Positions 12,815 to 13,066 of a stretch of DNA of 64,000 bases are shown here, piece by piece. Made by a program: the position numbers and the translations under genes. Source of the DNA: Escherichia coli. GTDB lineage: Bacteria; Pseudomonadota; Gammaproteobacteria; Enterobacterales; Enterobacteriaceae. Location: NCBI RefSeq assembly GCF_003334305.1, contig NZ_QOWS01000012.1; one strand, 5' to 3'. The notes under the pieces were generated by a model. That model did no database searches. It worked only from the letters and a program-made list of their open reading frames with translations, and had not been told where the DNA came from. Each line of letters opens with the position of its first letter. Within the stretch, counting starts at the first letter, position 1.

Positions 12815-12960
12815 GCTTATTCTCAGGGCGGGGCGAAATTCCCCACCGGCGGTAAATCAACTCAGTTGAAAGCCCGCGAGCGCTTTGGGTGCGAACTCAA
12901 AGGACAGCAGATCCGGTGTAATTCCGGGGCCGACGGTTAGAGTCCGGATGGGAGAGAGTA
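12815..12960 (+). promoter_or_regulatory. FMN riboswitch (RFN element) in the ribB leader
   Basis: Conserved RFN segments ctcagggcggggcgaaattccccaccggcggtaaa ... agcccgcgagcg ... ggacagcagatccggtg ... ccgacggttagagtccggatgggagag upstream of ribB. Confidence 0.85.
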
Positions 12961-13066
12961 ACGATTCTGTCGGGCATGGACCCGCTCACGTTATTTTGGC
13001 TATATGCCGCCACTCCTAAGACTGCCCTGATTCTGGTAACCATAATTTTAGTGAGGTTTTTTTACC

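Follow-up and report, generated by a model that had tools for sequence, protein, structure and literature searches.

An FMN riboswitch in the ribB leader of a non-K-12 Escherichia coli: a known element, its expression platform and its alternative helices

Introduction

The ribB leader of Escherichia coli is a textbook riboswitch as well as an antibiotic target (ribocil, roseoflavin); its RNA senses FMN, the vitamin-B2 cofactor, and then switches off a gene of riboflavin synthesis. In the published model, ribB expression is controlled by a dual mechanism, in which a sequestering stem prevents translation from starting and Rho ends transcription inside the leader (PMC11571811, PMC5499598, PMC10085680). 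Work by others on exactly the sequence described here has shown nanomolar FMN binding (Kswitch ~60-200 nM), FMN-dependent protection of P1 and of nt 215-227, and pauses at positions 175/181 and 247-249 (PMC11571811), while Rho dependence at ribB was shown by ChIP in rho R66S, with a termination score of 3.1 (PMC5499598). Deletion of the element derepresses the gene in cis, with both ribB transcript levels and riboflavin output going up (PMC9885008). The aptamer also bears a locus name of the sRNA type, sroG (PMC9885008).

This article describes the element in a window of 64,000 nucleotides, which is the whole stretch of E. coli DNA that was analyzed (contig NZ_QOWS01000012.1 of assembly GCF_003334305.1) and to which all positions refer unless another locus is named. 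It follows up an earlier note, made from the sequence alone, which had read an FMN riboswitch in the ribB leader. Family membership, gene context, and conservation and pairing statistics are observed directly on this locus and its relatives, and particular attention is paid to the way in which the aptamer ends, a C-rich box and the ribB start site share their pairing partners.

Identity of the element

The aptamer and the helix that closes it are placed as follows.

12815-12963, plus strand: FMN riboswitch aptamer, helices P1-P6 (full RF00050 model; RefSeq feature)
12817-12824 with 12954-12961, plus strand: aptamer helix P1 (100% paired in 29 aligned leaders)

When the whole window was scanned with Rfam 15, RF00050 (the FMN riboswitch aptamer, or RFN element) matched at 12815-12963 on the plus strand with 120.9 bits and an E-value of 1.1e-27. 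The gathering score of the family is 66.2 bits and the match spans model positions 1-138 of 138, without truncation. With such a score and E-value over the full model, the match is far beyond chance, and a chance resemblance to an FMN riboswitch was rejected on the E-value. All six helices P1-P6 are placed by the cmscan alignment, and 27 of the 28 consensus pairs are standard pairs; the sole exception, G68-A92, is non-standard in all 29 aligned enterobacterial sequences too. The junction blocks AGGGC, ACCGGCGGU, GCAGA, GCCGACGG and GGAUGGGAGA are all found in the aptamer in the RF00050 alignment. By every feature testable here, the element is a member of RF00050.

The earlier note had called the element a known one and had named this very Rfam scan as its check. 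Both the significant match and the surroundings bear it out, with RibB encoded downstream and the riboswitch annotated in RefSeq. The sequence blocks that it quoted were also located, namely ctcagggcggggcgaaattccccaccggcggt at 12822-12853, ggacagcagatccggtg at 12902-12918, ccgacggttagagtccggatgggagag at 12930-12956 and gtgaggtttttttaccATG at 13052-13069. Its second check, secondary-structure folding, gave a mixed result: plain MFE folding recovers P1-P4 and mispairs P5/P6, and the z-scores against shuffles are not significant (-0.81 for the aptamer, -0.61 for the leader), which makes folding uninformative on its own. As an identification test it does not discriminate, and the covariance model was used instead.

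Between 12740 and 13100 the window is 100% identical to E. coli K-12 MG1655, and every one of 5426 complete E. coli genomes matches a 501-nt query across the element at 99% identity or better; among the matches listed are E. coli genome records with a riboswitch annotation for ribB. One RefSeq record carries “FMN riboswitch” on exactly the same 149 nt. The element is real and correctly identified, was previously known and annotated, and has been extensively studied on exactly this sequence. Since the leader is identical to the K-12 sequence used in the experiments, the published results apply to it directly. In Eschbach et al. 2024 (PMC11571811), nt 1 is the 5′ end of the transcript. Converting this numbering to the window takes an offset of 12814, with G149, C175, G176 and U181 all landing on the right bases. 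Published nt 1 is window position 12815, which is also where the earlier note had started the element, and the AUG is nt 253-255.

Taken as a whole, 12815-13075 is, with a probability of about 97%, the E. coli ribB leader made of an FMN-sensing aptamer and an expression platform of ~110 nt that shuts ribB off at abundant FMN. The value of this reading lies in correct annotation, as an ORF track cannot display a riboswitch: it accounts for the 250-nt untranslated gap before ribB.

Gene context

The regulated gene, its promoter and an overlapping reading frame are placed as follows.

12780-12808, plus strand: probable sigma-70 promoter of ribB (sequence reading and conservation)
13067-13720, plus strand: ribB, 3,4-dihydroxy-2-butanone-4-phosphate synthase, the regulated gene (TIGR00506; RefSeq)
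13072-13329, minus strand: antisense ORF of 85 aa inside ribB, a shadow ORF (no family, no annotation)

The product of ORF 13067-13720 matches the RibB equivalog domain TIGR00506 with 287.7 bits (cutoff 177.45), and the aptamer ends 103 nt upstream of the ribB ATG, on the same strand. Upstream of the leader, the divergent ORF is UbiK. The probable promoter is made of a -35 element TTGCTG (12780-12785), a 17-nt spacer and a -10 element TATAGT (12803-12808), and published nt 1 lies 6 nt farther downstream, the start point being taken from the numbering in the literature. In 19 of 19 enterobacterial upstream regions, TTGC and TATAGT are kept, as is the spacing of 17 nt. A consensus promoter scan did not report the ribB promoter, because its -35 element matches the consensus at only 3 of 6 positions.

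On the opposite strand, ORF 13072-13329 has no NCBIfam family match and is unannotated in two RefSeq records, in agreement with the earlier note, which had set it aside as a shadow. The two frames share their third codon positions, as is usual for shadow frames. Codon-position substitution patterns were considered as a means of separating ribB from the antisense ORF and fail, since with coinciding wobble positions they cannot discriminate the two frames; homology was used instead. Full-length RibB homology decides for ribB, and the antisense ORF is a shadow, not a gene. The riboswitch explains why it should be ignored.

Several other features of the region are recorded here in their own right. 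Downstream of ribB, an intrinsic terminator at 13750-13786 (plus strand) is made of a 13-pair hairpin, AGAAACCGAAGUU...GGCUUCGGUUUUU, followed by AUUUU; it went unreported by the pattern scan. The small membrane-protein gene yqiD (56 aa) lies at 13981-14151 on the plus strand, between ribB and zupT, and in the mechanical ORF list its start is pushed upstream to a TTG at 13957. Farther away, the window holds two tandem copies of SIB RNA (RF00113) on the plus strand, at 3597-3746 (142.0 bits) and 3973-4122 (147.7 bits), an antitoxin sRNA pair of the sibD/sibE type; small Ibs toxin ORFs are expected on the strand opposite to SIB RNAs. It also holds the ES173 sRNA (RF02753) at 47040-47103 on the minus strand (99 bits) and the nucleoid-associated naRNA4 (RF02564) at 52884-52954 on the plus strand (68.1 bits).

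The comparative set

A pattern scan over one genome per species returned 120 loci. In 39 of them the motif is followed directly by a RibB homologue, and the start of the latter lines up with that of E. coli RibB. Together with E. coli, these give 40 proteobacterial ribB leaders, Vibrio and Thalassospira among them, and 29 enterobacterial ones were aligned. The layout of aptamer followed by ribB on the same strand thus occurs in 39 other proteobacterial loci, and RF00050 was found in 12 of the 12 orthologous loci scanned, with 107-126 bits. One of the comparison loci, from Yersinia, also carries the Ysr224 sRNA (RF02770) at 1832-1938 of that locus on the minus strand (96.4 bits), ~0.65 kb downstream of the ribB start region.

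The expression platform

Around the ribB start, three features of the platform are needed.

13027-13075, plus strand: sequestering hairpin, the FMN-bound OFF state (MFE folds; pairing in 29 leaders; published protection)
13053-13056, plus strand: ribB Shine-Dalgarno (SD) GAGG, 10 nt upstream of the ATG (read from the sequence)
13057-13063, plus strand: U7 spacer between SD and AUG (sequence; published pause)

In MFE folds, the sequestering helix is made of 13 pairs between CUGAUUCUGGUAA (13027-13039) and UUACCA(U)GAAUCAG (13062-13075). The SD occupies the apical part of this hairpin, while the AUG and codons 2-3 lie in its 3′ strand. FMN is needed to protect its 5′ strand, nt 215-227, from RNase H (PMC11571811), and the folded 13-pair hairpin matches the published “sequestering stem.” Because the helix includes the AUG and codons 2-3, the functional element takes in the first 9 nt of the coding sequence and ends at 13075. 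The span of 12815-13066 given in the earlier note runs from nt 1 through the base before the ATG, which is sound for the untranslated part, and stops short of the platform, which runs on to 13075. The arrangement is that of an SD-sequestering platform: one helix covers the AUG, and the alternative helices take their strands in part from P1 and in part from the base of the sequestering helix.

The order at the ribB start is SD GAGG, then T7 at 13057-13063, then ACC-ATG. The earlier note had placed the U-rich stretch just before the SD; this has to be corrected, as U7 comes after the SD and before the ATG at 13067. The SD is conserved as GAGG or AAGG in the aligned leaders. RNA polymerase pauses at nt 247-249 (PMC11571811), which with the offset of 12814 correspond to 13061-13063, within the U-run. 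The last two residues of U7, U248 and U249, pair with A225 and A224 in the sequestering helix.

Could this U-rich stretch near the SD instead be the tail of an intrinsic terminator, in a transcriptional switch of the Bacillus type where FMN lets the terminator hairpin form? The Bacillus subtilis ribD FMN riboswitch works in this way (PMC11571811), and the leader does contain two U-runs, UUAUUUU at 12991-12997, after a GC hairpin at 12971-12984, and U7 itself. A scan for stem-plus-T-run terminators found no site on the plus strand of 12815-13066, however; UUAUUUU begins 6 nt past the 12971-12984 stem, and U7 does not follow a stem but belongs to the sequestering hairpin, divided between its loop and its 3′ strand. 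As the leader holds no terminator-like site and U7 sits within the hairpin, the U7 run is not an intrinsic terminator tail. According to the literature, E. coli riboswitches make no use of intrinsic terminators (PMC11571811), and a switch of the Bacillus type is very improbable at this locus.

The ligand-free state and the C-rich box

The ligand-free state involves two further features.

12955-12997, plus strand: anti*-P1, the ligand-free alternative helix (full-leader MFE; published)
13009-13030, plus strand: conserved C-rich box CACUCCUAAGACUGCCCUGA (nt 195-216), a candidate Rho-loading (rut) region (composition, conservation)

In the full-leader MFE fold, anti*-P1 is formed between the P1 3′ strand at 12955-12963 (nt 141-149) and 12989-12997 (nt 175-183), and it encloses the small variable hairpin 12971-12984. 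This stem has been described and mutated, and pauses are known at C175 and U181 (PMC11571811), which correspond to 12989 and 12995. In the full-length MFE structure, anti*-P1 stacks on a second pairing, that of GGGAG (nt 136-140, 12950-12954) with CUCCU (nt 199-203, 13013-13017).

The strand that carries CUCCU is the C-rich box. No other segment of the leader is as rich in C and as poor in G as nt 193-217 (44% C, 16% G), a composition that does not by itself define a rut site. We infer that the box acts as a rut site, or Rho-loading region, and the segment fits the published idea of a Rho-loading site that is hidden without FMN and exposed with it (PMC11571811, PMC5499598, PMC10085680). Its 3′ part, GCCCUGA (13024-13030, nt 210-216), is complementary to UCAGGGC in the aptamer (12823-12829, nt 9-15). 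When transcripts of 216-258 nt are folded, the resulting helix is part of the MFE structure; at these lengths the GCCCUGA segment has been made and the 3′ strand of the sequestering helix is still incomplete. This candidate helix displaces only 4 of the 13 sequestering pairs.

In the published account of the ON state, helices take up the aptamer at both its 5′ and its 3′ end and anti*-P1 forms first (PMC11571811), while the structure of nt 150-210 is described in the literature as uncertain. The 9-15 x 210-216 helix is probably the published “anti-P1.” A more specific arrangement, in which GCCCUGA/UCAGGGC and CUCCU/GGGAG together form a composite clamp that without FMN conceals the Rho-loading site while opening the sequestering helix at its base, is a speculative and rather unlikely proposal; were the clamp different from the published “anti-P1,” it would refine the ON-state model. 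The exact ON-state partners proposed here for the C-rich box, including the role of anti-P1, are putative.

These shared strands also bear on the sroG name, under which the 149-nt aptamer might be taken mainly as a free-standing, trans-acting small RNA gene whose position before ribB is incidental. The locus does have an sRNA-type gene name (PMC9885008), and Rho termination in the leader would free a stable structured fragment. In each of the 40 leaders, however, the aptamer directly precedes ribB on the same strand; its 3′ strand and the platform form helices that are mutually exclusive with those of the ribB start site, and its deletion raises ribB transcript and riboflavin in cis (PMC9885008). 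A mainly trans-acting role is thus highly unlikely, and the cis-acting riboswitch is the reading kept below.

Conservation and pairing across leaders

Pairing of the helices in the 29 aligned leaders is summarized below, one helix per line.

P1: 100% of cells paired; 4 pairs vary on one side
Sequestering helix: 100% of cells paired; 12 of 13 pairs invariant, 1 varies from A-U to G-U
anti*-P1: 92.7% of cells paired; 2 pairs change on both sides
9-15 x 210-216 helix: 100% of cells paired; no compensatory change

Across the same alignment, the two pairings of the C-rich box (CUCCU/GGGAG and GCCCUGA/UCAGGGC) are 97-100% paired. Two substitutions fall on strands with alternative partners. A143G gives U-G in P1 and G-U in anti*-P1, while A216G gives U-G with U9 and G-U with U258, so that in each case both alternative partners are still paired. 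The substitutions tolerated are those keeping both alternative partners paired, which is the behavior expected of switch strands. No compensatory change was found in the sequestering helix, whether in the 29 aligned leaders or in the 40 overall, including Vibrio and Thalassospira, because both of its strands are essentially invariant. This helix is supported by conservation, by compatible single changes and by published probing; comparative data alone are no proof of it.

In each of the 39 other leaders, Vibrio and Thalassospira among them, a GCCCUG box lies 35-48 nt upstream of the ATG, and E. coli has GCCCUG too. The first three codons of ribB, ATG AAT CAG (13067-13075), are nucleotide-invariant in 40 of 40 leaders, synonymous sites included, while codons 4-11 have 5-12 codon variants each. 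Such invariance points to selection at the RNA level, with RNA structure apparently constraining the coding sequence. Together with that of the GCCCUGAUUCUGG box, it provides a tidy illustration, across Proteobacteria, of RNA constraint on coding, and not a discovery. As a separate candidate, ACUCCUAAG was considered by eye as an anti-SD strand pairing with the SD region; it was rejected, the pairing being lost in species whose SD region is UUAAUGAGG.

Attenuation by a leader peptide, with the small plus-strand ORFs 12885-13019 and 12976-13116 being translated and controlling ribB, can be dismissed as exceedingly unlikely: both ORFs exist, and the second begins with an ATG and overlaps the ribB start, but that ATG at 12976 sits in the variable-hairpin loop, where most aligned species have other sequences, no SD precedes it, and conservation tracks the RNA helices rather than a reading frame.

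Proposed mechanism

The published dual mechanism is the best account of the ribB leader. FMN binds the nascent aptamer and locks P1 (12817-24 with 12954-61), and the downstream segments able to pair with the aptamer ends then stay free. The sequestering hairpin (13027-39 with 13062-75) thus covers the SD, the AUG and codons 2-3, blocking ribosome binding, while the C-rich stretch at ~13009-13030 would remain single-stranded and Rho ends transcription inside the leader. Without FMN, the P1 3′ strand is captured by 12989-12997 to give anti*-P1, and the aptamer 5′ end and core would pair with the C-rich box (GGGAG/CUCCU, UCAGGGC/GCCCUGA). With the box masked and the base of the sequestering hairpin undermined, ribosomes would load and RibB would be made from ribB.

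The energetics of the full-length RNA have a consequence for this scheme. The sequestering helix is predicted for the ligand-free molecule too, at -88.1 kcal/mol vs. -83.2 for the ON model. As it is favored even without ligand, the switch must be kinetic, or co-transcriptional, or else helped by ribosome loading. A published FMN-sensing window, delimited by pauses, agrees with kinetic switching.

Comparison with known systems

The closest system is the E. coli K-12 ribB FMN riboswitch itself. Once the numbers are converted, the aptamer, the sequestering stem, anti*-P1 and the pause positions are the same, and the element itself shows no difference. The flanking strain background is another matter. 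The fimbrial usher ORF at 9005-11518 (minus strand) is intact here and encodes 837 aa, whereas its K-12 MG1655 counterpart, yqiG, is a pseudogene split by IS2. Although its ribB leader is identical to that of K-12, the window therefore comes from a non-K-12 E. coli.

The FMN riboswitch of B. subtilis ribD (ribDEAHT) has the aptamer family, the ligand and the off-switch logic in common with E. coli ribB, and both sense the ligand in a co-transcriptional window defined by pauses (PMC11571811). The output differs: B. subtilis ribD uses an intrinsic terminator/antiterminator, whereas E. coli ribB is without one and uses SD/AUG sequestration together with Rho.

In the Salmonella mgtA Mg2+ leader and the E. 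coli thiM/thiC TPP riboswitches, as in ribB, termination by Rho depends on the ligand, falls in the leader or the early ORF, and goes together with control of translation (PMC5499598), while their ligands and aptamers differ from those of ribB. Within this group, the models for ribB and mgtA have a rut site that is exposed directly; at thiM, Rho comes in indirectly, via the loss of translation (PMC5499598).
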